Source of the DNA: Steroidobacteraceae bacterium
GTDB taxonomy: Bacteria; Pseudomonadota; Gammaproteobacteria; Steroidobacterales; Steroidobacteraceae
Direction: 5' to 3'
Assembly: GCA_034005205.1 (NCBI GenBank)
Contig: JAVEVD010000001.1
Span: forward strand, 33,197 to 97,196
DNA length: 64,000 bases
Part shown: piece by piece, positions 41,687-61,439 of the stretch
How the letters are laid out: each line of letters opens with the position of its first letter
How positions within the stretch are numbered: the stretch's first letter is position 1
Program-made: the position numbers and the translations under genes
The notes under the pieces: model-generated
Seen by the model: only the letters and a program-made list of their open reading frames with translations
Database searches by the model: none
What the model was told of the DNA's origin: nothing

Positions 41687-44600
41687 TCACGACTTCCGCC
41701 GCCGGGCGCCGCGCCTGCCGTCGCCGATCAGGTTCAGCAGCGCGGTCCCCGGCACAGTGATCCAGGCAGGGCGCCCCGCGAGCTCAGCGCGCAATTCGCG
41801 CAGCGCCCGCGTGATCTCGAAAAGCGTGAGCAGCCGATTCATCTCCGCTTCCTCGAACACTTGCCGGGAGCCGGCGACGCCCGTTCGATAGCCTTGCAGG
41901 AACGCCTCGCGCGACGTGCGCTGCCAGCCGCCGAGCGCGGGCTCGAGTCGCTCGCGCATGTCCGAGCCGGCGAGAGATGCGTGCTCCAACGCGACCGCCC
42001 GCGCATAGTCGAACGAGCGCAGGACGCACGCGACGTCGTACAGAGGCGAATGCTTCGCTCGGCGCTCGTCCACGCTCAGGGACAAATCACCCTCGAAGCC
42101 GGTGATCACCACATCGTCGGCGGACAGGAGCGCCTTGCCGATGTGCAGGTTGGTGTGGATGCGCGTTTTGAGGTGCGCAACCGGGCCCTCGCACAACTCG
42201 CCGATGCGCGCCAGCAGTTTCTCGCGCCCGACGTCGAGACGGTGAGCGCAAGCGCGCGCCTGCTCGGGCAGCGACAGGAAATCGCGCTCGAGCGCCGCGA
42301 GGACCGACGTGGCCAGGTGCTGCGCCGTGCGGCGCCAGCGCTCCAGATCCGTCGACTCGATCGGCTCCGCCGCGAAATTCGCATCGCTGGTGGGCGCGGC
42401 CAGCAAGGCGTGCATCTCGCCGACGCGTCGTCCCATCGTGTGCATCTGAGCGGCGAACAGCTCGTGCGGAGATTCACCAGGCCCCGCCTGGGAATAAACT
42501 CCTACGGCGAAGCGCTCCAGGTGATTGAGCGCATAGTTCAGCACGTCGCCCTGGTGTCCGACGCGCGCGAAGAAGGCGGCGATGACGGTCGGCTGCGCGG
42601 CAACGTGGGTAATTGCGGCGGCGAGCGCTGCGATCTGCTTGAAGCCGGCGCGCGTGAGGAAATCCGTCATTTCGATGTCCGGATGCGGCCCGCGGGTCAG
42701 CAGCCTGTACGCCTTGAGGAACAGCACATCGTTCAGAATGACGCTGGTGTTCGTCGGCTCGGGCGTGATGTATTCCAGATCGTGCGGCTGCAGGTCCGGC
42801 AACTCGGGAAAGGCGTCCGTGCGCTGGAATTGCAGCTCGCCGCCGGCGAACGGGATGCTTTCCTCATTGCTCGCGCAGCGCGTCAGCGCGATGCAGAAGG
42901 CGGGGTCCGCAAAGGCGTCGATCAATAAGCCGACGCGCGCGTGTTCGCGCACTTTGGCGAGCGTCCACTCGGCGGTGCGCAGCGCGCCGTCGTCCGAGTC
43001 TTCCCAGACGAGCGTGAACGGCAGGAAGTAATCGAGTTCCTCACCCGACTCGGAGCGAGCCTCTATGTAGCACAGCAGATATGACTTCTGCTCGCGCCGC
43101 CACAGGGAGCGTCGTCCCAGCCGCGCCGACTGCAGCGCTCCCATGTGCCGAGTGATCCAACTGCGCGGACGAAGGAACTCGGGCAACACCTCCTGTTCGA
43201 GATGCTGCAGCGTGCGGCGCGCGACGATCTGGCTCGCGCCGTCATCCGGCAGCAGCGTGGCGAGGCCGTTGGTCAGCACCAGCACGGGCAGCTCGGTGGC
43301 GGGCGTGCGCTCGATGTGCCAGGCCGGCGGTTCGGCGTCCTCGCTGAGCAGCAGCCAGAAAAAGCCGTGCGCCGGCAGCGTCAGGAAGTAAGGCAGCTCG
43401 CCGACCGGAGGAAACGCGTTACGGCCGAGCATCTCCACCGGCACGCGACCCTTGTACTTCGATAGATCCAGCTCCACGGCCTGCGCCGTTTGCGCGAGAT
43501 TCGCCACGCAAAGCACGATCTCGTCCTCGCAGGTGCGCACGTATGCAATCACCTTGCGGTTCTGCGGACGTACGAACTCGAGCTCGCCGCGGCCGAAGCA
43601 ATGGTGCTGGCGGCGCACCGCCAGGATGCGCCGCGTCCAGTTCAGCAGCGACGACGGGTCGCGGCTCTGCGCCTCGACGTTGACCGCCTGATAGCCGTAG
43701 ATCGGGTCCATGATCACCGGCAGATAAAGTTGTTGCGGATCGGCGCGCGAGAAGCCGGCGTTGCGGTCGATGCTCCACTGCATCGGCGTGCGTACGCCAT
43801 TGCGGTCGCCGATGTAGATGTTGTCTCCCATGCCGATCTCATCGCCGTAATAGATGATCGGCGAACCGGGCATGGACAACAGCAGGCTGTTCATCAGCTT
43901 GATGCGATCGATGTCGTTGTCCAGCAGCGGCGCCAGACGCCGCCGGATGCCCACGTTGACGCGCATGCGCGGCTCCTTCGCATACATGCGGTACATGTAG
44001 TCGCGTTCCGCATCGGTCACCATCTCGAGCGTCAGCTCGTCGTGATTGCGCAGGAAGATCGCCCACTGACAGTTCTCGGGGATTTCGGGCGTCTGGCGCA
44101 TGATTTCCGCGATGGGATAACGATCCTCCAGCGCCACCGCCATGAAAATGCGCGGCATCAGCGGGAAGTGATACGCCATGTGACATTCATCGCCGTCGCC
44201 GAAGTACTCGCGCACGTCCTCCGGCCATTGGTTCGCTTCGGCGAGGAACATTCGCCCGGTGTAGTTGGCGTCCATCGCCGCGCGCATGCGCTTGAGCACC
44301 GCGTGCGTCTCAGGAAGGTTTTCGTTGTTGGTGCCTTCGCGTACGCACAGGTACGGGATCGCATCGAGACGCATCCCGTCCACGCCCATGTCCATCCAGA
44401 AGCGCATCACCTCGATGACCGCCTCCACCACGCGCGGATTGTTGTGATTGAGGTCAGGCTGATGCGAGAAGAAGCGATGCCAATAGTACTGTCCGGCGAT
44501 CGGATCCCACGCCCAGTTGGAGCTCTCGGTATCGGTAAAGATGATGCGCGTGCCGGCGAACTTCTTGTCGTCGTCGCTCCACACGTAGAATTCGCGTTCG

Positions 44601-45079
44601 GGCGAGCCGCGCGGCGCGCGGCGCGCCGCCTGGAACCACGGGTGCTGATCCGATGTGTGGTTGATCACCAGCTCGGTGATGACTTTCAGCCCGCGACGAT
44701 GCGCCTCGTCGATCAACCGGCGAAAATCGTCGAGCGAGCCGTAGTCCGGATGCACGTTGCAGTAATCAGCGATGTCGTAGCCGTCGTCGCGCAGCGGCGA
44801 AGGATAGAAAGGCAGCAGCCAGATCGCGTTGACGCCCAACTCCTGTATGTAGTCGAGCTTCTGTGTGAGGCCCGCGAAGTCGCCCACGCCATCGCCGCTG
44901 GAGTCGTAGAACGCCTTTACGTGCATCTGGTAGATGACGGCGTCCTTGTACCAGAGCGGATCGTTCGTCGGCTGCAGCGCCTGCCGCTCCTCTGAGGCTT
45001 CGACGCCCTCGGGCTTGGCGGCTTCGCTCTGCGCGCCAGCATCGGCTGCGCGCGGAATGTCGGTGGAAACCTCGGTCAT
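41687..45079 (-). CDS. treS: Trehalose synthase (maltose alpha-D-glucosyltransferase) fused to maltokinase
   Basis: About 1130 aa from the Met at 45079. N-terminal GH13 region ([42 protein letters not shown]). C-terminal about 450 aa is kinase-like, as in TreS-Pep2 fusions. Confidence 0.9.
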
Positions 45080-45169
45080 GTCGTGCGGGTTTTTTCTTGA
45101 CACTGTGTCGCGGTAACGCGCGCGGCGCGCGTGAGGGTTCCGGGCTGCGGCCAATCAAAGAAGGGACAA

Positions 45170-45378: not shown

Positions 45379-46779
45379 ATGCACGCCCGTCCACGAGCCA
45401 TCGCCCTCCTGTGGCTCACGCTCGCCGCCGCAGCGGCCGGCGTCACCGCGGCCGGGACGGCGCCTTCCGAGCAGGAATACTGGGCCGAGTTCGATCATCG
45501 AGACTGGCGGGGCGCCACCGAAACGGCCGAACGCCTCGTGGCCGCGGCGCGCGCCGACGCCGTACGCCAACCGCTGGCGCTCTCAGAAGCCCTTGCGCTG
45601 CTCGGCAACGCGCAGCTCGCCTCGGGCGACTTCGTGAGCGCCGAAAGCTCCTTCAGGGAAGCGCTCCAGCTCGCGCAGCGACACGCCCGCGCGATGAGCG
45701 CGAAGCTGCTCGATCCGATGCGCGGCCTCGGCTACACGCTGGCGGCCAGCGGCAAGCACGAGGAAGCCGCCGGCGTCCTCGAGCGCGCGCTGCTGGTGGC
45801 GCACCGCAATTACGGCCTGTTCGATCCAGGGCAGCAGGGAATTCTGCGACAGCTCGCGGCGAGCCTGACTCGCGCGGGACGGCTGGAAGAAGCCGGGCGC
45901 CGCATGGCGTATCTATTGCAGGTCGCCGAGCGGGCACACGGCAAGGACGATCCAGACCTCGTTCCCACCTTGTGCATCGTAGGCGGCTGGTACTCGGACG
46001 TCGCGCAGTTCGGCGCCGCCCGCGAAACGTTCCATCGCGCCCTGCAGATCGTCGAGAAGAAAAAAGGCCCCATGGATCTGGCGGCCGTACCGGCGTTGCG
46101 CGGGCTGGCGCGCTCATACACTCTGGAGGTCTACTACTCCACTCTGGGCGTACGCGTACGCAGCGGTCGCATTCCGTCCGACGCCGACGGCTCGAGCAAC
46201 GATCGGCAGCCGCTCGATCCCCGCTATCTGAGCTCCGCAGGCGAGAAGGCGCTGCAACGCGCGCTCGACATCATCGAGGCGCAGCCTGAACCTTCCCTCG
46301 ATCAGCATATCGACACGCTCATTCAGCTCGGGGACTGGATGCAGACCAAGCACCAGCCGGAGGACGCCCTGCCGCTGTATCGGCATGCTGCGCAATTGAT
46401 AGAGCAGCGCGCGGCGCAGACGCAGTCCGGCGAGCGCGGTGAACCGCCGGAGGGGCCGTTCAGTTTTCCGACGCGCGTCTGGTATCCGGCGCCCTGGCTC
46501 GCCACCCGCAACCTGACGGCTTCGCCAGAAGCCGTGGACGAGCGCTACGTGCAGCTCGAGTTTACGGTGACCAGCGACGGGTCGGTGGCTGATGCGAAGG
46601 TGGTCGACAGCGACGGCAGCAATCGGCAGATCGCTCAATCACTCGAAGCGATCCGCGCGGCGCGCTACCGGCCGAGATTCGAGAACGGCGAGCCGGTCGA
46701 CACCCCCGCGGTCACCCACCGCGAGGTGTTCAGGACTCGCCGCTCGACTCCACAGAGCGATCAAGAAGTCGGCAGTTGA
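45379..46779 (+). CDS. Secreted TPR-repeat protein with TonB C-terminal domain
   Basis: 466 aa. Signal MHARPRAIALLWLTLAAAAAGVTAAG. TPR-like helical repeats. C-terminus YVQLEFTVTSDGSVADAKVVDSDGSNRQIAQSLEAIRAARYRPRFENGEPV fits the TonB_C pattern. Confidence 0.75.
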   Translation: MHARPRAIALLWLTLAAAAAGVTAAGTAPSEQEYWAEFDHRDWRGATETAERLVAAARADAVRQPLALSEALALLGNAQLASGDFVSAESSFREALQLAQRHARAMSAKLLDPMRGLGYTLAASGKHEEAAGVLERALLVAHRNYGLFDPGQQGILRQLAASLTRAGRLEEAGRRMAYLLQVAERAHGKDDPDLVPTLCIVGGWYSDVAQFGAARETFHRALQIVEKKKGPMDLAAVPALRGLARSYTLEVYYSTLGVRVRSGRIPSDADGSSNDRQPLDPRYLSSAGEKALQRALDIIEAQPEPSLDQHIDTLIQLGDWMQTKHQPEDALPLYRHAAQLIEQRAAQTQSGERGEPPEGPFSFPTRVWYPAPWLATRNLTASPEAVDERYVQLEFTVTSDGSVADAKVVDSDGSNRQIAQSLEAIRAARYRPRFENGEPVDTPAVTHREVFRTRRSTPQSDQEVGS

Positions 46780-46810: not shown

Positions 46811-47692
46811 TCAAAAATCGCCAGGGTGCGCGCCGGCCGCTTCCTTGCCGTCATCCGCCGCTTCATCTTCGAGCGCCGGTTCGTCTTCGAGCGCCGGCTG
46901 CTCGTCGCGCTGCGTCTCGGTCGCCGACTCCGACTGCGCGTCGCCCGTCGGCGCCTCGGATGTGGCCGATGACTCGGAATCGGACTGCGGCTCCAGCTGC
47001 ACCGCTTCGCCGGACTCTGCTTCTTCGGACTCTGCTTCGCCTGCGGACTGATCGCTCGGCGCCGGCGGCGCAGGACCATCATCGGCGGTGGGCTCCTGCG
47101 GCAGCAGCCCCCGCACGACCGCCTGCTCGCGAAACTCCACTGCGAGCTTCGCGCCTGCATCACGCATCGCGACCGCCGTGGCGGCGGCCAGCGGCGGCGC
47201 GCTCGACAGTCCCGCCGCCGGCGCTGACCCGTAGCCGGTGAAGCCCCACGAGTCGGCGAGCTTGCCGTCGGGCAGATATACGTTCACGCGATACTTGATG
47301 CTGACGGCGTAGAAGGACGAGCCGGCGTCGCGCGGGGTTACGAACGCGTACTCCTCGATGCTCGGCTCCAAGATCGCGGCGATCCCGTCGATTTGCGTCC
47401 CGGCGTTGACGCTGTCGACGGTGACGACGTGCTCGAACATGGCCGTGATCAACCGCTTCACGCCTTCGGTCTGGGCGGCGCCCAGCTCGACCTGCCACTT
47501 GGTGCTCCAGCGCTCCTCCTGGTGAACGTACTGCGAGAAATCCGGGGGCAGGAACAGCGCCACGCCGATCGGGATCTTCACGACCAGGGGCGGGGGGATA
47601 TTGGCGCTGGCCACGAGATGGACCGGACCACATCCCGCGAGCGCGACGGCGCAGGCGGCGAGCACCGAGACGATGAATTGGCGGGACTTCAC
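46811..47692 (-). CDS. Lipoprotein with acidic low-complexity tail (last gene of cluster)
   Basis: GTG start overlapping the upstream stop (GTGA). MKSRQFIVSVLAACAVALAGC lipobox. C-terminal Glu/Asp/Ser-rich about 90 aa. Confidence 0.7.
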   Translation of the reverse strand: MKSRQFIVSVLAACAVALAGCGPVHLVASANIPPPLVVKIPIGVALFLPPDFSQYVHQEERWSTKWQVELGAAQTEGVKRLITAMFEHVVTVDSVNAGTQIDGIAAILEPSIEEYAFVTPRDAGSSFYAVSIKYRVNVYLPDGKLADSWGFTGYGSAPAAGLSSAPPLAAATAVAMRDAGAKLAVEFREQAVVRGLLPQEPTADDGPAPPAPSDQSAGEAESEEAESGEAVQLEPQSDSESSATSEAPTGDAQSESATETQRDEQPALEDEPALEDEAADDGKEAAGAHPGDF

Positions 47693-48765
47693 GAGGACCT
47701 CGGTCGCGGGGGTTCGGCGCTGCGCGTCGGAGCAGCCGCCGCATCACCTATACGAAACTGCGGGCCGCGGCGTTCCGGATCGTCCAGCCCCACGAACGTG
47801 CCGCCGTTGCGCTGGCACATGATGCGCATCAGGGTGGCGAAGCGGATGCTGGTGTATTGCGGGGCGTCCGGGCGCACCGGGAAGCCGATCGCATGGATGC
47901 GCACGCGCCGCTCGCCGGTCTCGTCCTCGCGATTGATGATGTCCACGCCCTTGAGCACGGAGTCGATCGACGGCCCCGTGAACTCGTCGCCGAACACGTA
48001 CAGGCTGATTCTCTTGTCCTTCGAGTAATACGTGCGGATCGCCTCGACGATGCCTTCGATCGGGCTGGAGTTGGAGAACGCGTTCCAGGTGCGCAGCCGC
48101 TCGATGACCGTGCGGCGCTGCGAAGGAGTGTCGGGAATCCACTTGCCGCGATAACTCGTGAACATGTAGGCGCCTTCGTCATTCATCACCTGAAAGCCCT
48201 TCACGCGCGGGTAGATGTTCAGGGTCTCCTCCACCTTCTGCAGCATCAGCGGCCAGGCGTAATTGAACATGCTGCCCGAGGTGTCGATGATGAAAATGAT
48301 GTACTCGCTGTCTACGGGTATGCCGCCGATCGCATCGTCCTTCTTGCGGCGGAAACCTTCACCGAGCAGGCGTTTCATCTCCTCCGTCAGCGTCTGCTGC
48401 GCGGCGGCGAGCTGCCCTTCGAGCTGGTTGGCGACGTCGGCTTCCTGCCGGGAGGCGCGGTGACGGCCGCGCACATCGCTCAGATCGCCCTGCAGGCGCG
48501 CAATACGCGCTTTCACATCCGAAAGCTGTTCCTGCCGCGCGGCGAGATCCCGATTTAGGATCTCGCTCTGTCCTTCGATGTCGACCAGTTCGTCCTGCAG
48601 CTTCAGAAGCTGCGCCTGAAGATCCTCTTGCGCCTGCTCGATTTCCGGCGAGCGGATGTTGCTCAGCACCAGCAGCAGCACGACTGAACCCAGACCACAG
48701 GTGATGCAGTCCAGGAACGAGATGCTGAAGATCTCCGTCTCGCGGCGGATCATGCGGCGAGCCAC
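47689..48765 (-). CDS. TM-anchored coiled-coil vWA-domain protein (paralog 1) with ExbD/TolR-like Asp-containing anchor
   Basis: 358 aa. MARRMIRRETEIFSISFLDCITCGLGSVVLLLVL, about 110-aa heptad-rich region, vWA MIDAS start IIFIIDTSGSM. Confidence 0.8.
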   Translation of the reverse strand: MARRMIRRETEIFSISFLDCITCGLGSVVLLLVLSNIRSPEIEQAQEDLQAQLLKLQDELVDIEGQSEILNRDLAARQEQLSDVKARIARLQGDLSDVRGRHRASRQEADVANQLEGQLAAAQQTLTEEMKRLLGEGFRRKKDDAIGGIPVDSEYIIFIIDTSGSMFNYAWPLMLQKVEETLNIYPRVKGFQVMNDEGAYMFTSYRGKWIPDTPSQRRTVIERLRTWNAFSNSSPIEGIVEAIRTYYSKDKRISLYVFGDEFTGPSIDSVLKGVDIINREDETGERRVRIHAIGFPVRPDAPQYTSIRFATLMRIMCQRNGGTFVGLDDPERRGPQFRIGDAAAAPTRSAEPPRPRSS

Positions 48766-48844
48766 TACACCCTCCTGCTGCGCGGCGCAGCCATACCCGC
48801 GGCCGTCGTAGGATGCATGGTCGAGCGCCTCATGAGCCGCCGCT

Positions 48845-49939
48845 TCATGGCCAATCCTTCGACGGGCTCAGGAAGGAGCCGCCGGTGCGCCGCGCAGCGA
48901 GCCAGAACGCGCTCGGCGCCATCGGATCCCCCTCCATGGGCATGAGGATCACATTGAACGGCACGCCCTGGGGATACTTGGCGAACGCGCGCTCGAACAG
49001 CTTCAGCCGCGCATCGCCGTCGATGGTCTTGCGGATCATCGGCGCGCCGGCGCCCTGGGTCGGCAACCCGTCGGTGATCATGATTACGTTGTCCGGACGC
49101 GGATTGAGCGCATTCATCGCGGCGAACGCGTTCTCGACGCTGGTGCCGTCCTGCGGAATCGTCTTGCCGAGCGCCGCGAGCGCCTCGCTCATGGCGTTCG
49201 GATCGCTGACTTTCAGCCACTTGCCGTCCGTGTCGGGCGCCAGCGCCCATGCCTTGGTGTTGAACGCGTAGATCTGAAACTGGCTTTCCATCGGCATCTG
49301 CGCCGCAAGCCACTCGACCGTGGAGACCGTGCGGCGCCACTTCTCCGACAGGAGCTTGCGTGACTCCGGCATGTTGCGCATGCGCAGGATGTTGACCACC
49401 GTCTCATCGAGCATGCTCGCCGAAACGTCCACCAGCAGCACGATTCGCTGGCCGGAGATGCGCAACCCCGTGAGGTACTGGCGGTCCCCGGAGCCCACGA
49501 AACCGCGCACGCGCGTCCCGGGGGCGCTCACCTCCCGCGCCGCGCCCTCCAGGCGCCGCGCACCTTCCTCGAGCGACTTCAGATCGGCTTTCAGCCGCTC
49601 GATCGCCTCGCGCCGAGACAGTGTTTCCTTCTCCGCATCCGCGAGTTGCTCGCTCAGACGCTTGGTGTCTTCGATGATGCGCGCGCCCAGACCCTCGGTG
49701 CGCACGCGCTCTTGATCGGATTCGATGATCGAATTGCGCAACACGACCAGGCGCTGATAGCCCTCGAGCACCTGCTCTTCCATTTTCTCGACCTGCGCGC
49801 TCAGCTCCCGCGACTCGGTCGCGAGGCGCAGACCGCCCTGCGCGTTGATCAGCGTATAGACGAGCACCACCGACCCGAACGCGCAGGTGATGCAGTCGAG
49901 GAACGACATGCTGAAGACTTCAGTCTTGCGGCGCGCCAT
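48845..49939 (-). CDS. TM-anchored coiled-coil vWA-domain protein (paralog 2)
   Basis: 364 aa. MARRKTEVFSMSFLDCITCAFGSVVLVYTLI, coiled coil, MIDAS start IVLLVDVSASM. Confidence 0.8.
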   Translation of the reverse strand: MARRKTEVFSMSFLDCITCAFGSVVLVYTLINAQGGLRLATESRELSAQVEKMEEQVLEGYQRLVVLRNSIIESDQERVRTEGLGARIIEDTKRLSEQLADAEKETLSRREAIERLKADLKSLEEGARRLEGAAREVSAPGTRVRGFVGSGDRQYLTGLRISGQRIVLLVDVSASMLDETVVNILRMRNMPESRKLLSEKWRRTVSTVEWLAAQMPMESQFQIYAFNTKAWALAPDTDGKWLKVSDPNAMSEALAALGKTIPQDGTSVENAFAAMNALNPRPDNVIMITDGLPTQGAGAPMIRKTIDGDARLKLFERAFAKYPQGVPFNVILMPMEGDPMAPSAFWLAARRTGGSFLSPSKDWP

Positions 49940-51437: not shown

Positions 51438-52271
51438 TCATCTCACTTGCATGTGCCTGATAAGGTTCTGATCGATCCAGTGGTCGGTGTCGTGGACGAA
51501 CTGTTCCTGCGCCTGCTGCACCTGGTGCAGGAAGAACATCAGAATGATGGTGAGCAGCAGGGCGACGAATGTGGCGTTGAAAGCGATGCCCAGGTCGGAA
51601 GTGACGCCGGTGATGTCGCCGGTCACCGCCTTGTGAGCCTGCAGCAGCGCATCGCCGATGTGGCGCACCGTGCCGATGAAGCCGATCGCCGGGATCGCCC
51701 AGGAGATGTAGCGGATCATCGCCAGGCCTGAGTCAAGCCGGTCCGCCTCGGAATCGCAGACGGCGCGCGCAGTCTCGGCGGAATCGCGGATGCTGCGCGT
51801 GGCTGCGAAGCGATCCAGCGTGCGCTTCAAGGCGCGCACGACCAGCATGGGCTTGTCTTCCTCGGGCAGCTCCTCGAGCTGGCGTGCGTAATCCTTCGCA
51901 TCTTCGGGCAACACCTTGATGCCCTCCGGCACATGGATCAGCTCGCGCTCGAGCAGCTTGCGCTCGCGGCGCACGAGCAGCCCCTTGTAGCCGAGTATCA
52001 GCAGCGCCCATATGAAATGAATGATCGCCGCTTCCTGTTCGTAGTCCTTGATGACCAGGAACACCGAGCGATCAGGCACATAGTCCGGATCGGCGCGCAT
52101 GCGCGCCTGCTCGGCGGCGATGACTTCCGCGCCGGCCGGCCGAATCCACGCCACGTAAGCCGCATGCACCGCCAGCACCGTGACGATGAGAGCGAACAGC
52201 GTGACGAAGAACTCGCTCGGATAGTGAAACCGGCGAGGCGTTGCGGCGTCCGAGGCTGTTGTCGTGACCAT
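51438..52271 (-). CDS. MotA/TolQ/ExbB-family proton-channel protein
   Basis: 277 aa, 4 predicted TM. C-terminal IPAIGFIGTVRHIGDAL...DLGIAFNATFVALLLTIILMFF matches the MotA_ExbB core (compare ExbB APFVGLFGTVWGIM...GIAEALLATAIGL). Confidence 0.8.
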   Translation of the reverse strand: MVTTTASDAATPRRFHYPSEFFVTLFALIVTVLAVHAAYVAWIRPAGAEVIAAEQARMRADPDYVPDRSVFLVIKDYEQEAAIIHFIWALLILGYKGLLVRRERKLLERELIHVPEGIKVLPEDAKDYARQLEELPEEDKPMLVVRALKRTLDRFAATRSIRDSAETARAVCDSEADRLDSGLAMIRYISWAIPAIGFIGTVRHIGDALLQAHKAVTGDITGVTSDLGIAFNATFVALLLTIILMFFLHQVQQAQEQFVHDTDHWIDQNLIRHMQVR

Positions 52272-52327: not shown

Positions 52328-52822
52328 TCAGATGTCGATGGGGAACGAAACGTCGAAATCGGCGCGCACCTGCTCCGACGGCGTAAAGCGCTGCGGCGAG
52401 GCGCGGCCGGAAGCGTTCGAAGCCGGCGGCGGCGCGTCTCGCTGGTCTTCCTCGGCGGTCGGCGCAGACGGCTGCGCTTCGTCCTGGGCGCCGGCGGCGT
52501 CCTTGGCGGCGTGCACTTCGTCCTCCGAGACCTGCCGTCCAGGCGCATTCTCGGCGGACGCGGCGCTTTCGCCTGGCTGCGCCGCGGCGCCTGCGGGCGC
52601 CTCTGCGGTGAGCGCCGGCATCGGCGCCGCCGCTGCAGGCTTGGCCGACGCCGCGCTCACGCTGCGCGGCTGCAAAGCTTCCGTCGCGAACAAGATGGAG
52701 CCCGAGGTCGCCACCGCGGCAAGCATCACCGTCATTCGCATCTGCGGGTTCGAACCCCGCCGGCGCCGCGATCGATCCGTTGAACGATTCATGTCCACCC
52801 TCTCATACGCGCATCGCCTCAA
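52328..52822 (-). CDS. Ala/Pro/Glu-rich secreted hypothetical protein (start uncertain: 52822, 52792 or 52741)
   Basis: Signal-like MRMTVMLAAVATSGSILFATEA, a low-complexity middle, C-terminus RFTPSEQVRADFDVSFPIDI. The longest start overlaps the upstream stop by 4 nt. Confidence 0.5.
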   Translation of the reverse strand: MRRCAYERVDMNRSTDRSRRRRGSNPQMRMTVMLAAVATSGSILFATEALQPRSVSAASAKPAAAAPMPALTAEAPAGAAAQPGESAASAENAPGRQVSEDEVHAAKDAAGAQDEAQPSAPTAEEDQRDAPPPASNASGRASPQRFTPSEQVRADFDVSFPIDI

Positions 52823-55230
52823 TGTGCGTAGCGCGCAATGCGAAACCCGACGTCGTCACGCGCGCTGTCGCCGAAATCGCGGGCCGCGAGCCGCAGATCC
52901 GTGACGCTGGAGCTGCGCCAGCTCGAGCCGCGAATCACGTGCTGACGTCCCTCGGCGGGGCCAGTCGGATCCACTGCAACCTCCCGAGCATCCATACTCA
53001 CAGTGTAGAGATCGTGCACCCACTCAGCGACGTTGCCGCCCAGATCGTGCAGTCCGAGCGCGCTGGGCGGAAACTTGGCTACGGGCGCGGCCGCCGCGAA
53101 GCCGTCGTCGTAATCCGGAACGACATTCGTCACGAGCAGTCGTGCGCTCGCATCTGCGTAATTGCCCGAGGCGGCGGCGACCGGCAGCGTATCGCCCCAT
53201 GGATAGCGGCGCAGCGCTCCGGAACGTTCGCGCCGCGCAACCCACTCCCATTCTGCATCGGTCGGCAGACGATAGCCGTTGGTCAGCGGATTCACCGCAA
53301 CCAGCGCATCGCCCTTCTTCTCGTAGGCAGGCTCGAGCCCTTCCTGTTCCGAAAGCCAGTTACAGAACGCGGCGGCGTCCTGCCAGCTCACGCCGACCAC
53401 CGGCTGATTGTCGAGATCGAGCGTGTGCTGTCCTGCAATGCCGGAACGATGTTGCGGACGGAACCGGCGGAACTGGGCGTTGGTCACTTCGGTCACGCCG
53501 ATATAGAACGGCCGCCTCAACTCCACTTCACGCTGCGCTTCATTCGCGCGGCGTCCGGGTTCGCGCCGCGGGCTGCCCATGACGAATCGCCCGAGCGGCA
53601 TCAGGCGCAGCTCTTGATCCGCCTTGGTGCGGATCGTCGCGGGCGTCTGCGCGAGCCTGGCTTGCGCCGGCGTCAGCAGCGTAGCTTCGACCACTTGCGG
53701 CACGCCGGGGCGCGGCGTGACTGTGGCCGTATAGTCGACGTAGCCGGATTTGCGAACGGTGATCTCGTGCGTCGTCGCGACGAGCCGCAGCGTCTGGTTC
53801 GCCGCGCCGCTCGCCTTGCCGTTCACGAACACCTGAGCGTCCGCGGGCTGCGCGCGCACGGTGACCTCCCCGTAGACGCCGGTCAGCGGCACGGACAGTG
53901 AGCGCTGCTCGCCGGGCGCAAGCTTGAGCTCGCGCGTCGCGGCTTCGTACCCGGGCCGTGTGAGCACGACGGCGTGCGTCATATCGGGCTTCAGCTCCAG
54001 CGTTAGCGGGGTGCGTCCGCGATACACGCCCGCCACCGAGACGTTGGCGTCCGCAGGCTCCGAACGCAGCGTGAGCTGCGCGTCCGGCAACCCGAGCTGC
54101 ACCGGTCCGATGGTCTGTGGCTCATTCGCCTTGACCTGGATGTCCGTGCTCCAGGGCTTGAAGCCCTCCAGCCGCAGTTCGATCGGATGATTGCCGGCGA
54201 CGATCTGCGTAGTGAGCGGCGTGACGCCGCGCCGCTCGCCGTTCACGAGCAGCTCGGCGCCCGTGGGCTGCGAGGTGATGCTCACGTCCGCCCAGTTGGG
54301 CGTGAGCTGAGGCGTGAGGGTCTGCACCTTGCCGCCGCCCTCCACTTCCACCTGGGCGCTGAACGGCTGGTAGCGTTGCGCGGCGATCGACACCGTATGA
54401 CGCCCGGCAGGAAGCTCGAACTCGCCCGGCGTCGCGCCGAGCGTCTCTCCGTCGACGCTCACGACCGCGCCCTCGGGCGCATCGATGCGCAGCCGTCCTG
54501 GAAGCTTCGCCAGTTTGAGCTCGAACCGCTGATTGGGCTCCGCCGTGACGCGGGCCTCGAGCTGCGCGGGCTCGTAGCCCGGAAGCTGCGCACGAAAGCG
54601 ATACTCGCCCGGGCGCAACAGCACCCTCTCGCCCAGCCGTACGGAAAACGTCGAACCTTCCACAGTCACCCTCGCCTCGGCCGGTTCGGTGCGCACGCTG
54701 ATCGAGGTCGCCGTGAACACGAACCACAGTACGAAAGCCGCCGCGACCGCCAGTGCGCCCAGCGCCAGCCGCATCGGACTGAGGCTGAACGAGCGTCGGG
54801 CGCGCGTCGGCTGAGTCGGGCGGAACTGCGCCGCATCTATGCGCTCGGCCTCCGCGTCGCCGGCCCCACGCAACCGCGCGCCGGGCTCGATGACGGGCGG
54901 GACAGTGATGTTGTCCGCGGCCCCGTCTTCGACCTCGATCACCGGGCCATCCTCGTTGGCCGTGAGTCGCAGCCGCGCGGCGCCGAAGTTCACTACGTCG
55001 CCGGGACGCAGCCATGTGGAGCGCGTGACTGGCTCGCCGTTGTGCAGCACCTCGGCGCCCTCGGCCGGCTGTACGAAGAGCTGCTCCTCGTGCAGCCCCA
55101 CGTAAGCCTGCGCGCCGGGCGGACGACCCGCCATCACCACGGCGGCGCCTTCGCCGCCGACCGCGATGGGAAAGTCCTCGGCCGTGAAGCGACGTTCGCC
55201 CAGCGCCTCGCGCAACAGCAGCCCGCTCAA
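52819..55230 (-). CDS. FHA-like / TM / PEGA-repeat / FGE-sulfatase (SUMF1-like) domain protein
   Basis: I place the start at the TTG at 55230 (GAGGA 6 nt upstream; overlaps the kinase stop as TTGA). FHA-like FPIAVGGEGAAVV...LHNGEPV...GDVVNFG. TM LALGALAVAAAFVLWFVF. Repeated PEGA-type modules (e.g. DAPEGAVVSVDGETLGATP). C-terminal FGE domain (WQDAAAFCNWLS, GNVAEWVHD, VIRGSSWRS). Confidence 0.8.
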   Translation of the reverse strand: MSGLLLREALGERRFTAEDFPIAVGGEGAAVVMAGRPPGAQAYVGLHEEQLFVQPAEGAEVLHNGEPVTRSTWLRPGDVVNFGAARLRLTANEDGPVIEVEDGAADNITVPPVIEPGARLRGAGDAEAERIDAAQFRPTQPTRARRSFSLSPMRLALGALAVAAAFVLWFVFTATSISVRTEPAEARVTVEGSTFSVRLGERVLLRPGEYRFRAQLPGYEPAQLEARVTAEPNQRFELKLAKLPGRLRIDAPEGAVVSVDGETLGATPGEFELPAGRHTVSIAAQRYQPFSAQVEVEGGGKVQTLTPQLTPNWADVSITSQPTGAELLVNGERRGVTPLTTQIVAGNHPIELRLEGFKPWSTDIQVKANEPQTIGPVQLGLPDAQLTLRSEPADANVSVAGVYRGRTPLTLELKPDMTHAVVLTRPGYEAATRELKLAPGEQRSLSVPLTGVYGEVTVRAQPADAQVFVNGKASGAANQTLRLVATTHEITVRKSGYVDYTATVTPRPGVPQVVEATLLTPAQARLAQTPATIRTKADQELRLMPLGRFVMGSPRREPGRRANEAQREVELRRPFYIGVTEVTNAQFRRFRPQHRSGIAGQHTLDLDNQPVVGVSWQDAAAFCNWLSEQEGLEPAYEKKGDALVAVNPLTNGYRLPTDAEWEWVARRERSGALRRYPWGDTLPVAAASGNYADASARLLVTNVVPDYDDGFAAAAPVAKFPPSALGLHDLGGNVAEWVHDLYTVSMDAREVAVDPTGPAEGRQHVIRGSSWRSSSVTDLRLAARDFGDSARDDVGFRIARYAH

Positions 55231-57690: not shown

Positions 57691-58944
57691 TTATTCGCCG
57701 CCGCTCGACGACGCTGCCGCGTCGGCGGACGCCGCCGGCGCCTGCGCAGGCAAACCAGTCTCGTTCTCGTACAGCTCCTTCAGCAGTCGGCGCCATTCCT
57801 GGAACTGCTCTTCCGCCGTGCCTTTGAGCTGCAGAGTGCGCCCCTCCACCTCGACCACCATCGGTTGTACTTCCGCCTGGAACGACTCGCCCAACTGCTG
57901 CAGGGAGTCGGAATGCATCTTCACCTCGGCGCCCTTGTCGAAGCCGCTTTTCACCGCGTAAGCGCCGCCGAAGACGGCGCCGGTGGCGGCCGCCTGCCCG
58001 GCGTACGTGTTCGCTTCGCTGCCGACCACCAAGCCGCCGACGATGGCGGCCGCGCCGAGCAGCTTTCTGGTAAGCGCCGAACGACGCGCTTCGTCCTCGG
58101 CTTCATGCTCCGCATAGCTGTAGCGGCGCCAGTTCGTGTAGGGCTCAGACATGTTGTCGGCGAACAGCGCGTAATGCTCATTTATGGTGTCGAGCAGCGC
58201 ATAGTCGCGCTCGCGGATGCGATCCATGCGCACCATCAGCGGATCACTCTCGGCGGGCAGGCGCACGATCTGACGCTGACCGCTCTTGCGATCGACTTGC
58301 ACATACGACTCGAAAGCGTAAGGCGCGAGCTCCGCCGCAAATCGCAGCTCCGATACGCGGCGCACGTTCTCCAGGTCCTGCGGCGTGAGCTGCTGACGGT
58401 AGGCCAGCATGTCGTTCGCCAGGTTGCTGTACAGGTTCTGAAATGGATCGCGCGGCCGACCGCTCGAGTCCTTGTAGGAGCGAGTATCGGCGATCTGCTG
58501 GTATTCCTTGCTGAACCACTGTCGACCGGTCGCGTCCTCCACCGTGACGTGCAGCCTGAGCTCCTGACCATTCGACTCGAGGATCTTGCCCGAAACGTAT
58601 ACATCGAGCGCCTCGGCGTCGGCCGGTATCACGCGCACTTGGCCCCAGTGGCCGGCGCCCTCGAGCGTATTGCGGATCTGCATCGGCAGGTAGCGCGCTT
58701 CGGCCCGCCGCACCTCCGGGAAGATGTGCTCGCGCGCTAGCTTCTCTTCATCCTCGGGCACGTTCTCATCGAACAGCCGCACGCTCACGTCGAGCAGTTG
58801 CTCGGCCGGGATCTCGTGAGTGGCCTGGATTGCTTTGACGTATGGCAGCGGGCGGATCTCGTGAGTGACGCAGCCCGCGGCTGCGAGCGCGGCCAGCGCG
58901 GCCAGCGCCGCGCCAATCGGGCGATTCGAGCGGTTCATAAGCAT
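57691..58944 (-). CDS. Lipoprotein, function unknown, with Gly-zipper-like segment
   Basis: 417 aa. AALAALAALAAAGC lipobox. LLGAAAIVGGLVVGSEANTYAGQAAATGAVFGGAYAV glycine-zipper-like stretch. Confidence 0.65.
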   Translation of the reverse strand: MLMNRSNRPIGAALAALAALAAAGCVTHEIRPLPYVKAIQATHEIPAEQLLDVSVRLFDENVPEDEEKLAREHIFPEVRRAEARYLPMQIRNTLEGAGHWGQVRVIPADAEALDVYVSGKILESNGQELRLHVTVEDATGRQWFSKEYQQIADTRSYKDSSGRPRDPFQNLYSNLANDMLAYRQQLTPQDLENVRRVSELRFAAELAPYAFESYVQVDRKSGQRQIVRLPAESDPLMVRMDRIRERDYALLDTINEHYALFADNMSEPYTNWRRYSYAEHEAEDEARRSALTRKLLGAAAIVGGLVVGSEANTYAGQAAATGAVFGGAYAVKSGFDKGAEVKMHSDSLQQLGESFQAEVQPMVVEVEGRTLQLKGTAEEQFQEWRRLLKELYENETGLPAQAPAASADAAASSSGGE

Positions 58945-58984
58945 GTGTCCGGCAACCGTTGATCTGTCCTCACGAAACGTCCCG

Positions 58985-60433
58985 TCAACTCGTCGCCTTC
59001 TTGTAGTTGCGATACTCCTGCCAGAGCTTCTCGCGCAGCTCCGGATCCGTCTCGTTCATCGCGGCCTCGCGAAGCTGGCGCGCTACGATGTCATCGTCGC
59101 TGCCATCGGGGATATCCGCCGGGACAGTGCTCGGACCGCTGCCGCCGCCGGCCCCGCCGCCGACGCCGCCTCCTCCGCCGCTGCGCTGGCCGCCCTGACC
59201 CTGACCCTGACCCTGGCCCTCATCTCCGCCTTCGCCCTGACCGCTCGCGCCGCCCTGGCCAGCCTGATCGCCCGCGCCGCCCTGACCGCCCGCTCCCTGA
59301 CCGTCGCCGCCGGCGCCTTGCGCGTCCGAACCTCCGCCGACGCCTTCCTCATCCATCGTGGATCCGGCGCCTGCGCCGCTCCAACCTGAGCCGCGGCCGC
59401 CGCGCTGGCCGGCGATCACCGCCTGCTCCTGGCGAATCCGCCCATCGAAGACGCCGAACGAAGCGTCCAACTCACGATCGATCTGGGCCACCCGCTCGCC
59501 GCTCGTCATCGGGCCGCCGCCAGGTCCGCCGCCAGATTCGCCATGGGCCCCAGATGCGCCGCCTGAACCGGCCGCGCCGTGGCCTGCGCCATACGCGCCG
59601 CCCTGACCGCCCTCGCCGCCCTGGCCGCCAGCCGAACCCGCGACTGCGCCCGAGCCCGCAGCTCCACCCGGACCGCCCTGCGCACCGCCGCCCATGCCCG
59701 GCGAGCCGCCCTCTGCAGCGCCGCCGCCGGACCCCCCGGAAGCGCCGGAAGATCCGCCGCCGCTAGAACCTCTGAAAATGCTCTCATTCGCGGCGCCGCC
59801 GCCCATTGCGCCGCCCGCCTCGGGCGCGGCGCCGCCGGCTGATGATCCCGCGCCGCCTGCGGCGCCGCCGTTCGGAGAAGGAACGCCCACAGCCGGCGAA
59901 CCGCCGACGCTTGGAAGTCCCACGCTCCCGGCGCCGCCGGAACCCGAACCGCCGCCGGTTTGACCAGTCGCACCGCCGCCCGGCGCGCCCGCCTGGCCGC
60001 CCTGGCCCTGAGCGCCTCCGCCCTGGGAAGTTCCGCCGCCCTGCGCGCCGCCGCTCTGGCCGCCCTGCACGCCTCCGGAACTAGCGCCGGATCGCCCGCC
60101 GCTTTGCGAACCACCCGATTGACCCTGGCTGCCGCCCGAGCTCGACGGCATTCCCGAGGGAAGCGACGCACCCGAGCCGGACTGCCCGCCGGGCGAGGGC
60201 ATGCTCGACGAAGATCCGCCGCCGCTCGGCGAGCTGGAGCCGCCGGTGGAGCCGGGCGAGCCGCCGCTTGGCGAAGGCGGCGTGGAAGACGGCGTCGAGG
60301 TGGAGGACTGGCTCGCGCAACCGCCCATGAGCAGCGCCGATACGGCGCTCACTGCCGTGACGTGCGCTGCAATCACGCACACCCTCCGCAACCGCGAGGG
60401 GCGTGTGCGTTGCGACCTGTGCTGAGCGTTCAT
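58985..60433 (-). CDS. Gly/Ser/Ala/Gln-rich low-complexity lipoprotein
   Basis: Start at the Met at 60433 (MNAQHRSQRTRPSRLRRVCVIAAHVTAVSAVSALLMGGC). About 400 aa are almost only G/S/A/Q/P. Ordered C-terminus DDDIVARQLREAAMNETDPELREKLWQEYRNYKKATS. Confidence 0.6.
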   Translation of the reverse strand: MNAQHRSQRTRPSRLRRVCVIAAHVTAVSAVSALLMGGCASQSSTSTPSSTPPSPSGGSPGSTGGSSSPSGGGSSSSMPSPGGQSGSGASLPSGMPSSSGGSQGQSGGSQSGGRSGASSGGVQGGQSGGAQGGGTSQGGGAQGQGGQAGAPGGGATGQTGGGSGSGGAGSVGLPSVGGSPAVGVPSPNGGAAGGAGSSAGGAAPEAGGAMGGGAANESIFRGSSGGGSSGASGGSGGGAAEGGSPGMGGGAQGGPGGAAGSGAVAGSAGGQGGEGGQGGAYGAGHGAAGSGGASGAHGESGGGPGGGPMTSGERVAQIDRELDASFGVFDGRIRQEQAVIAGQRGGRGSGWSGAGAGSTMDEEGVGGGSDAQGAGGDGQGAGGQGGAGDQAGQGGASGQGEGGDEGQGQGQGQGGQRSGGGGGVGGGAGGGSGPSTVPADIPDGSDDDIVARQLREAAMNETDPELREKLWQEYRNYKKATS

Positions 60434-60585
60434 CGTGTCTCCTGCGATCGTCTGGTCGCGATCGGATGCTTGCGCGGCTGCCGCCGCGAAAACTGTGCGA
60501 TCCACCACCTGAACGACGGCTGAGCGTCATTCGATCCGCGCACGCGCGTTCTGTCCGCGCAGACGCTGTGCCCCGCGCGGGCGGC

Positions 60586-61389
60586 TCAGTCGACCCGCGC
60601 CGCCGCGTCCTCCTGACCCGAGCCGAGCAGAAACGACTTGAGTTGCCCGGCCAGACGATCGCAGGCCGTGCTCTGCACCGGCGCGATCAACGGAATTGGC
60701 GCAATCGCGCCGATCATCACCGACGTGCCCTTCACGCCTGTAGTCAGACTGCCGGCGCTCAATCCGGTGCGCAGGTCCCAGATCGTCGCTTCGTAGTCGG
60801 AGGTCTTCTCCCACCAGCCGAGCCCCAGGCATCCCGCCCCGCCCGGCCCGGCGGCGCAGGCGATGCTGCCGCCGCCGTCGGTCTTCTCCGTGACGCCGTC
60901 CACCCAGACGATGTAGCGCACGCCCATCTCGGTCACCCGCTCGCTCACGCCGGGTCGGGCGAGAAACGCGCTAAACCCTTGCGCGTTGGCCGGAGCGGTG
61001 CTCGGCTCGAGCCACGGGTACAGCGCGTCGATGAAATGGTGATCAGCGTAGATCTGGAACGGACGATTGCGCAGGCTGCTGCGCGGGGCGACGTCCTTGC
61101 CCGTGCGTTGCCTGTCGGCAACGGTTGCGGAGACTGCTTCACCGACCAGTTCGCGCTCCAGGCAATCGAGGAATTTGTCTTCTGTGCCCGTGCCTTCCAG
61201 ATGCGGCTTGGCGAGCAGCACGATCGCCTCGTCTGATCGGATTTGCGTCGGCGCCTCACGCACCTCTTCTATCTTGGCGGTCATACAGCCGCTAACGCCG
61301 AGCGCCAGCGAGCCGAGCGCCGCAACGCGCAGCGACCTGGCGACGGTCCGCTGCAATGAATGTGCAATAGAGGTTTGTTTCGCCGACAT
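60586..61389 (-). CDS. Lipoprotein, function unknown (first gene of cluster)
   Basis: Start at the Met at 61389 (MSAKQTSIAHSLQRTVARSLRVAALGSLALGVSGC). Several Cys residues. No family recognised. Confidence 0.6.
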   Translation of the reverse strand: MSAKQTSIAHSLQRTVARSLRVAALGSLALGVSGCMTAKIEEVREAPTQIRSDEAIVLLAKPHLEGTGTEDKFLDCLERELVGEAVSATVADRQRTGKDVAPRSSLRNRPFQIYADHHFIDALYPWLEPSTAPANAQGFSAFLARPGVSERVTEMGVRYIVWVDGVTEKTDGGGSIACAAGPGGAGCLGLGWWEKTSDYEATIWDLRTGLSAGSLTTGVKGTSVMIGAIAPIPLIAPVQSTACDRLAGQLKSFLLGSGQEDAAARVD

Positions 61390-61439
61390 CGCGCCGCAGC
61401 CTGCCGCCTGATGCATGAGCGTCTCCCGGAATGCGCCGC

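Follow-up and report, generated by a model that had tools for sequence, protein, structure and literature searches.

A stretch of 64,000 nucleotides from the genome of a Steroidobacteraceae bacterium (assembly GCA_034005205.1, contig JAVEVD010000001.1, positions 33,197 to 97,196; hereafter the window) carries two adjacent genes, vWA1 and vWA2, coding for membrane-anchored proteins with a vWA (von Willebrand factor A) domain, together with a gene coding for an ExbB/TolQ-type protein. Our analysis makes it fairly likely that vWA1 and vWA2 form the aspartate-carrying axle of an ExbB/TolQ-like 5:2 ion-driven motor, in which they would replace ExbD/TolR. This is the best-supported explanation because a conserved and buried Asp lies in a single-pass helix at the depth and in the orientation known from ExbD, TolR and MotB, because an obligatory pair of helices matches the two axle positions of a 5:2 motor, and because the dedicated ExbB/TolQ-type partner keeps both pore threonines. 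It is further favoured because no ExbD, TolR or MotB was found in 84 neighbourhoods, and because other single-pass helices of the locus have no conserved acidic residue and the anchor has no SHLS/His motif. The model-based idea of a vWA axle is not new, having been in print since 2025 (PMC12204202), and the value of the present analysis lies in the confirmation and extension of this published idea.

Anatomy of the vWA pair

A first-pass annotation of this DNA had described two open reading frames (ORFs) on the minus strand with similar N-termini and an Asp near the start of each. Both ORFs and N-termini were recovered as described (Table 1), with the Asp at residue 15 of vWA1 (codon 49895-49897) and residue 19 of vWA2 (codon 48709-48711). 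The two proteins are paralogues, with 30% identity over the N-terminal ~180 residues (BLASTP E=8e-16). A hydropathy scan revealed a single transmembrane segment in each, at residues 13-31 in vWA1 and 15-33 in vWA2, preceded in both by a tail rich in Arg and Lys, which argues for an N-in, C-out topology. The Asp sits 3-4 residues into the transmembrane segment, as in ExbD/TolR.

vWA1 was modelled with AlphaFold2 (AF2) from 81 family sequences (mean predicted local distance difference test score, pLDDT, 89.8). In the model, residues 8-131 form a single uninterrupted helix, residues 132-164 a linker of low confidence and residues 165-364 a compact vWA fold. A Foldseek search with the domain 165-364 against the PDB matched many solved vWA domains (best E 1.7e-7, probability 1.00). 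vWA1 also matches Pfam VWA_2 (Table 1); vWA2 alone has no Pfam match. The metal-ion-dependent adhesion site (MIDAS) starts with DVSAS in vWA1 and DTSGS in vWA2. In the family alignment of vWA1, the MIDAS residues D171, S173 and S175, a GGT-type loop and D290 are conserved, while vWA2 keeps DTSGS and the late Asp and has SNSSP instead of the Thr loop. DTSGSM is conserved in at least 90% of the vWA2 orthologues, and the C-terminal tail of vWA2 is variable. The Rossmann-like vWA fold with a MIDAS of the DxSxS...T...D type, characteristic of the PF13519/PF00092 clan, is present. The predicted layout of a long stalk helix followed by a vWA domain with a MIDAS start in both proteins is borne out by the AF2 model and the Foldseek matches for vWA1 and by the family alignments. 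The periplasmic part of the stalk helix measures ~99 residues, or ~15 nm, and is followed by a linker of 33 residues; by inference, stalk and linker would together be long enough to reach peptidoglycan or outer-membrane lipoproteins.

Conservation of the anchor motif and of its aspartate

When 1.84 billion cluster representatives were searched exhaustively with HMMER (E<=1e-3), 1296 relatives of vWA1 were found, each standing for a protein cluster at 50% identity. The anchor motif among these relatives reads RR..F(S/N)LSFLD(V/C/I)M.CGFGA..LLF.II. The Asp is present in 95 of 95 diverse relatives with complete N-termini, a set that was itself picked by a pattern demanding the Asp; in the full list of relatives, the members without the motif were all N-terminally truncated or had a mis-called start, and no substitution was found among them. 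Residues F13, D15, G22 and L26 are invariant in the vWA1 alignments, and S173 and D290 are also among the family invariants.

The same anchor motif occurs in 80 of 81 vWA2 orthologues from 80 loci, the exception being an N-terminally truncated fragment, so that the Asp singled out in the first reading holds across the orthologues of both proteins. Both paralogues keep the motif even in three distant clusters whose vWA1 is 31-35% identical to that of the window. When one genome per species was scanned, the motif was found in at least 590 of 185,579 species genomes; its recurrence in these genomes and in 1296 clusters argues against a chance occurrence, and the family, with ~1300 clusters, is widespread. 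The SHLS/His motif of the TonB/TolA type is absent from the anchor in the diverse vWA1 relatives. The transmembrane helices of two other proteins of the locus, a Ser/Thr kinase and a protein with an FGE-sulfatase-fold domain (the FGE protein), have no conserved acidic residue.

An ExbB/TolQ-type partner

A gene of the MotA/ExbB family had been noted 1.5 kb upstream of the vWA pair in the same direction of transcription, and a PF01618 match confirms it (Table 1). A family profile built from 36 orthologues of its product matches E. coli TolQ (8odt_A) with E=3e-4, and in the profile alignment the invariant residues T201 and T234 align with T145 and T178 of TolQ, which established Tol/Ton work identifies as the threonines lining the pore and facing the Asp of TolR/ExbD. 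The AF2 model of the protein (pLDDT 88.7, predicted template-modelling score 0.81) was compared with the PDB by Foldseek: ranks 1-45 are all ExbB/TolQ chains, with a best template-modelling score of 0.71 for A. baumannii TolQ (8vlw_B), and MotA/PomA enter the list first at rank 46. The TolQ profile match, the aligned threonines and this ranking of the predicted model identify the partner as a stator subunit of the ExbB/TolQ type and not as a flagellar MotA. Family model, fold and pore threonines all place it in the ExbB/TolQ family (PF01618).

Search for a canonical B subunit

No canonical ExbD, TolR or MotB gene had been seen in the window at first reading, and our searches agree. E. coli ExbD, TolR and MotB used as queries in tblastn and phmmer found nothing in the 64 kb; the ExbD and TolR query sequences had been checked against PDB entries. 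With every filter switched off, a 12-sequence ExbD/TolR hidden Markov model (HMM) reached no better than E=2.5 for the 611 ORFs of the window and E=0.52 for 5,575 ORFs from 84 related loci.

Two candidates were examined and rejected. A weak phmmer match to TolR at L064:7351-7716 proved to be a small secreted protein with a conserved C-terminal motif and no transmembrane Asp, which is described below. A weak MotB candidate after vWA2 in three loci of the Woeseiaceae type is a protein with a signal peptide, a glycine zipper and an OmpA domain and without a transmembrane Asp.

Synteny and distribution

The proteins of the window were used as phmmer queries on 80 loci, and only loci with enough flanking DNA were counted. 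The second vWA gene lies next to the first in all loci (75/75), a gene coding for an Hsp70-like protein with an FHA domain is present in 68 of 72, and a TolQ-like gene is found within 2.4 kb upstream in 58 of 65. Also retained are the genes coding for the FHA-PEGA-FGE protein (50 of 53 loci), the Ser/Thr kinase (43 of 46), a 417-residue lipoprotein (37 of 42) and a Gly/Ser-rich lipoprotein (31 of 36). Two further genes are lineage-specific: that of the 293-residue lipoprotein at 46811-47692 occurs in 40 of 67 loci, and that of the TPR/TonB_C protein at 45379-46779, which co-occurs in the gammaproteobacterial branch, in 35 of 59.

The closest relatives of the window are Steroidobacteraceae, with 76-83% identity. 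Among the matches listed are also Woeseiaceae, Halieaceae, Pseudomonadales, Desulfobacterales, Myxococcales, Vicinamibacteria, Kiritimatiellia and Isosphaeraceae, and members as distant as 31-35% identity still have the same core. Starting in the reverse direction, from two high-scoring TolQ-like proteins, led to the same cluster.

Relation to a published class of vWA proteins

A class of proteins named TPH-vWA, with Idiomarina loihiensis as exemplar, was described in June 2025 (PMC12204202; Mol Biol Evol 2025;42:msaf138, section 8 and Fig. 4c-d). According to that paper, these membrane-tethered vWA proteins are 'predominantly found in heterologous pairs' and co-occur tightly with tolQ homologues, without tolR, exbD or motB. 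The AlphaFold 3 models of the paper put the paired helices inside a TolQ-like pentamer, with the Asp pair beside a Thr ring, and the same motor mechanism as here was proposed for the class, which occurs in Proteobacteria and PVC-group bacteria and whose basis is synteny and AlphaFold 3 models.

The pair of the window resembles this class in its helix Asp, in the absence of SHLS/His, in its heterologous pairing, in its tolQ-like neighbour, in the absence of tolR, exbD and motB, and in the Thr ring. It appears to be of the same class. The surroundings found here go beyond that description: the text of PMC12204202 says nothing of an intervening Hsp70-like/FHA gene, a kinase, an FHA-PEGA-FGE protein, a small protein with a C-terminal motif or lipoproteins. 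Full-text literature searches, whose coverage is incomplete, found no paper on the wider cluster beyond PMC12204202. The extension from a pair and its pentamer to a conserved multi-gene envelope system seems to be the new part of the present analysis.

Weighing the evidence

Several observations weigh against an axle role and are gathered here. The first-pass annotation had drawn a sequence parallel between the anchor and ExbD/TolR, and this parallel did not survive comparison. Pfam hmmscan (E<=10) of the full proteins, of their first 60 residues and of 54 diverse anchors gave no ExbD or MotB match. An HMM of the anchor found no ExbD/TolR in the PDB, only a chance match to NDUFB4, and with filters off it scored ~0 bits against ExbD, where only FLDvm aligned with FIDVM. 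A comparison by hhalign with a 3-sequence and then a 12-sequence ExbD/TolR profile returned probabilities of 1.5-2.1% (P 0.022-0.034); four control transmembrane segments, from the kinase, the FGE protein, a lipoprotein and the TolQ-like protein, gave P 0.047-0.25 against the same profile. The 12-sequence profile was composed of E. coli sequences and ten diverse annotated genes from plasmid and chromid records; a first ExbD profile had been dropped because the database yielded just Enterobacterales ExbD with an identical transmembrane region. The family Asp was put on TolR D23 in every alignment that hhalign returned. Since the control helices score comparably, the similarity of the anchor is indistinguishable from a generic likeness of transmembrane segments, and the resemblance to ExbD/TolR is limited to the pentapeptide F-[IL]-D-V-M, the topology and the depth in the membrane.

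As regards family membership, the pair has the N-in transmembrane helix with a conserved Asp and the linkage to an ExbB/TolQ-type gene that are typical of PF02472, without a match to the family model and without the periplasmic alpha/beta domain (AF2, HMM). Nor do the features of MotB/PomB appear, as neither vWA protein has an OmpA match and there is no plug helix. Because homology cannot be demonstrated and the defining periplasmic domains are absent, the vWA proteins should not, as judged from their sequences, be filed as members of the ExbD/TolR or MotB families. The failed homology lowers the case that the pair is an ExbD, not the case that it works like one. The match with the TPH-vWA class is one of described features.

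The gene neighbourhoods contribute further points of this kind. In the window, the TolQ-like and vWA genes are not direct neighbours, as one gene lies between them. Four clusters (L046, L054, L061 and L065) are otherwise complete and have no TolQ-like gene, with only ~400 nucleotides between the FGE and Hsp70-like genes, and they keep the Asp. Three loci (L010, L011 and L015) carry an orphan vWA pair in an unrelated context with no TolQ-like gene within reach, again with the Asp kept; in Peristeroidobacter soli (L015:10001-12126), the orphan pair is inserted between ccm genes and an ABC transporter. Finally, an ExbD/TolR may be encoded outside the 64 kb of this genome that were examined.

The hypothesis that the two proteins are the B-type subunits of the TolQ-like channel accordingly stands in part: Asp conservation, pairing, synteny and the absence of ExbD, TolR and MotB nearby speak for it, and the lack of profile similarity to ExbD/TolR speaks against it. 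Alternatively, the anchors could be ordinary signal-anchors, in which the Asp and the CGFGA motif serve another purpose such as heterodimerisation, binding to a further membrane protein of the cluster or quality control, and the pentamer could use an ExbD/TolR-type axle encoded elsewhere or act without an axle as a channel or sensor. Such an arrangement would account for an anchor no closer to ExbD/TolR than unrelated transmembrane helices and for the four full clusters and three orphan pairs without an adjacent TolQ-like gene, and it draws on the limit of the genome view to 64 kb. We nevertheless regard it as rather unlikely. A buried and conserved carboxylate is costly in a single-pass helix and is a hallmark of B subunits, the TolQ-like subfamily is specific to the cluster in both directions of the synteny search, the 84 neighbourhoods hold no ExbD/TolR, and both pore threonines are conserved. 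The published AlphaFold 3 models also favour insertion into the pore (PMC12204202).

The long periplasmic stalk with its C-terminal binding head recalls the architecture of TolA and TonB, and an outside-docking class of vWA proteins is described in PMC12204202, so that the pair could be pictured as force transducers docked outside a pentamer whose pore is filled by something else. This seems very unlikely given an anchor without a conserved His or SHLS-type motif, the absence of a tolR or exbD gene whose product could occupy the pore, a stalk that is helical and not Pro-rich, and two genes that form an obligatory pair.

The cluster might also be mainly a transmembrane module for signalling by Ser/Thr phosphorylation, with the TolQ-like protein as a proton-gated sensor or scaffold instead of a working rotary motor and the vWA domains as periplasmic ligand sensors. 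Modules that combine vWA proteins and kinases are common in bacteria, a kinase and two FHA-domain proteins are co-conserved here, and the cytoplasmic loop of the TolQ-like protein contains an invariant Thr with Ile at +3. A mainly signalling role is quite unlikely, as it leaves the intramembrane Asp and the pore threonines unexplained, and a distant locus (L081) keeps the four-gene core with no kinase nearby; signalling and motor function are in any case not mutually exclusive.

Proposed mechanism

As the axle of a motor, vWA1 and vWA2 would form a heterodimer with both N-terminal transmembrane helices inside the TolQ-like pentamer, giving a 5:2 assembly. D15 and D19 would take the role of ExbD D25, TolR D23 and MotB D32, being protonated and deprotonated beside the Thr ring formed by T201 and T234. 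Each axle subunit would consist of a helix of ~100 residues (~15 nm), presumably in a coiled coil with its partner, a flexible linker and a vWA head with a MIDAS. Driven by proton flow, the stalk would be turned or pulled and would exert force on the ligand of the vWA heads, be it periplasmic or at the outer membrane; any proposal for this ligand is speculative.

We hold more tentatively, and consider it possible though doubtful, that the vWA pair and the TolQ-like ring serve only as the engine in a trans-envelope machine encoded by 10-12 genes, whose motor output is gated by threonine phosphorylation. The parts of such a machine would be the heterodimeric MIDAS axle, the Hsp70-like/FHA protein, the membrane kinase, the FHA-transmembrane-PEGA-FGE protein, a small protein ending in ...SFPxDI and several lipoproteins. 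Their genes are co-inherited across Gammaproteobacteria, Desulfobacterota, Myxococcota, Acidobacteriota, Kiritimatiellia and Planctomycetota. T158 of the TolQ-like protein (codon 51798-51800) is invariant in the predicted cytoplasmic loop, within the motif RFxxT-R-x-I-Q-D. FHA domains typically bind phospho-sites in which Thr is followed by Ile at +3, and the T158-R-x-I sequence would be a candidate phospho-site readable by an FHA domain, although this is only a lead. Regulation by the Ser/Thr kinase and the two FHA proteins is speculative, including as a part of what is new here. If phospho-gated control of the motor were true, it would represent a mode not known for Ton, Tol, Mot, Gld or Zor.

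Comparison with known 5:2 motors

To our knowledge, every 5:2 ion-driven motor characterised so far (Mot, Ton, Tol, Gld/Por and Zor) has a dedicated B subunit. If the vWA domain sits directly on the rotating axle, 5:2 motors would be wired to a different output, namely metal-dependent binding, and the conserved partners would offer handles on what the motor pulls and how it is switched.

Like ExbD/TolR (PF02472), the vWA proteins have an N-in single-pass helix with the Asp 3-4 residues from the cytoplasmic face in an F/L-[IL]-D-V-M context, they are linked to an ExbB/TolQ-type gene, and two copies would be expected per pentamer. They differ by the invariant CGFGA glycine motif of their anchors, which is absent from ExbD/TolR, by the lack of detectable profile similarity and by the long helix and vWA domain that replace the alpha/beta domain of ExbD. 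ExbD/TolR is moreover a homodimer, whereas the vWA proteins would form a heterodimer of paralogues. With MotB/PomB they would share a single transmembrane helix with a conserved Asp in a pentamer of A subunits and a periplasmic part that anchors the stator to an envelope structure; they lack, however, the plug helix and the OmpA-like peptidoglycan-binding domain, and the A subunit has here the ExbB/TolQ fold.

The proposed machine resembles GldLM/PorLM as a 5:2-type motor with a long periplasmic axle arm towards outer-membrane components, and by an FGE-sulfatase-fold protein as in PorK/GldK. The vWA proteins have, however, no homology to GldM, and no genes of the type IX secretion system are present. 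The key charged residues of GldLM are also arranged differently. The pair shares with TonB, TolA and the TolA-like vWA transducers of PMC12204202 a stalk tethered to the inner membrane, a C-terminal binding domain and energising by an ExbB/TolQ-type protein. Transducers of the TonB/TolA type, however, bind the pentamer from outside through SHLS/His and need ExbD/TolR in the pore, and both the motif and the genes are absent here.

The wider conserved cluster

The vWA and TolQ-like genes belong to a cluster of ~10-12 genes conserved across several phyla, which includes the kinase, the FHA-PEGA-FGE protein, the small secreted protein, the Hsp70-like FHA protein and lipoproteins. In the window, this cluster is completed by four lipoproteins and the TPR/TonB_C protein (Table 1).

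Table 1. Genes and features of the vWA/TolQ-like cluster in the window.
Feature	Position	Strand	Evidence or remark
Secreted TPR protein with TonB_C	45379..46779	+	TPR_12 3.3e-21, TonB_C 9.9e-10
Lipoprotein, 293 residues, lipobox LAGC, acidic low-complexity C-terminus	46811..47692	-	Start overlaps vWA2 stop by 4 nucleotides; no Pfam match
vWA2, 358 residues, paralogue of vWA1	47689..48765	-	ORF list and BLASTP
vWA1, 364 residues, C-terminus ...DWP	48845..49939	-	ORF list and VWA_2 match (2.9e-6)
vWA1 anchor, residues 1-33, MARRKTEVFSMSFLDCITCAFGSVVLVYTLINA, proposed trans-pore helix	49841..49939	-	Family motif
Hsp70/actin-like ATPase-fold protein with C-terminal FHA domain, 467 residues	49920..51323	-	FHA 2e-11
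ExbB/TolQ-type subunit, 277 residues, proposed pentameric stator ring	51438..52271	-	PF01618 5e-11
Small secreted protein, C-terminus ...RFTPSEQVRADFDVSFPIDI-COOH	52328..52822	-	Start probably 52792 or 52741
FHA (cytoplasmic)-transmembrane-5x PEGA-FGE-sulfatase-fold (periplasmic) protein	52819..55230	-	PEGA 3.3e-61, FGE-sulfatase 1.5e-46
Ser/Thr kinase (cytoplasmic)-transmembrane-periplasmic TPR region with C-terminal beta domain, 800 residues	55227..57629	-	Pkinase 1.2e-39
Lipoprotein, 417 residues, lipobox AAGC	57691..58944	-	Conserved in cluster; no Pfam match
Gly/Ser-rich lipoprotein, 507 residues	58985..60508	-	Conserved in cluster; no Pfam match

The 1.5 kb that separate vWA1 from the TolQ-like gene are filled by the gene of the cytoplasmic Hsp70-like protein, which shares 20 nucleotides with the start of vWA1. 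The family profile of this protein matches the nucleotide-binding domains of SSB1 and DnaK (E 3.5e-5 to 1.7e-3, profile positions 79-295), and a hydropathy scan found no transmembrane segment in it. The gene belongs to the four-gene core even in distant clusters, where its products of 433-499 residues have no recorded Pfam match; the FHA domain may be absent from these distant members. The protein could be a cytoplasmic regulator or a partner of the pentamer on the rotor side.

The small secreted protein has a signal-like N-terminus, a low-complexity acidic middle and only its last ~20 residues conserved, in the form ...F.P(S/T)E.(V/I)..D..(V/I)SFP.DI-COOH. Most loci from the different phyla have, immediately upstream of their TolQ-like gene, an ORF that terminates in [FYW]PxD[IVLM], for example at L001:7374-7766, L036:7323-7760 and L069:7605-7841. 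Within the machine, this protein may serve as ligand or adaptor; being acidic, its C-terminus would fit a MIDAS site.

The start of the FGE gene as called mechanically, an ATG at 55467, gives an overlap of 240 nucleotides with the kinase gene and an implausible Arg-rich N-terminus. The true start is probably the TTG at 55230, which yields a protein of ~803 residues and is favoured because it overlaps the stop codon of the kinase gene, as in orthologues with overlaps of 4 nucleotides. The hydropathy scan placed the transmembrane segment of the FGE protein at residues 234-252 of the long ORF and that of the kinase at residues 330-348. The FGE-sulfatase-fold domain has a domain-level NCBIfam match to GldK/PorK (1.1e-35) that is far below the family cut-off.

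Three lipoprotein genes lie upstream of the kinase gene (57691-61416, minus strand) and code for proteins of 417, 507 and 276 residues without a Pfam match. At the other end of the cluster, the gene after vWA2 in clusters of the Woeseiaceae type (L073:12224-12937, L077:12251-12973 and L052:7191-7916) encodes a protein with a signal peptide, a glycine zipper, a coiled coil and a peptidoglycan-binding OmpA domain, a hint at a connection between the machine and the cell wall in some lineages. The equivalent position in the window is taken by an unrelated protein, the acidic lipoprotein at 46811-47692. The gene of the TPR/TonB_C protein is convergent with the operon, and its product has a binding domain of the TonB type but lacks a membrane anchor of that type.

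Other features of the window

A plasmid or other mobile origin of the region was considered and rejected: no relative was found in any plasmid record, and the base composition is even across the window. A defence system was likewise rejected, as PADLOC returned just coiled-coil noise and generic kinase matches. Just outside the cluster, a minus-strand ORF at 41687-45154 encodes a protein of 1155 residues in which an alpha-amylase catalytic domain (6.7e-95) is joined by a long extension at the C-terminus; the protein resembles a fused enzyme of the trehalose-synthase type and is unrelated to the vWA finding.

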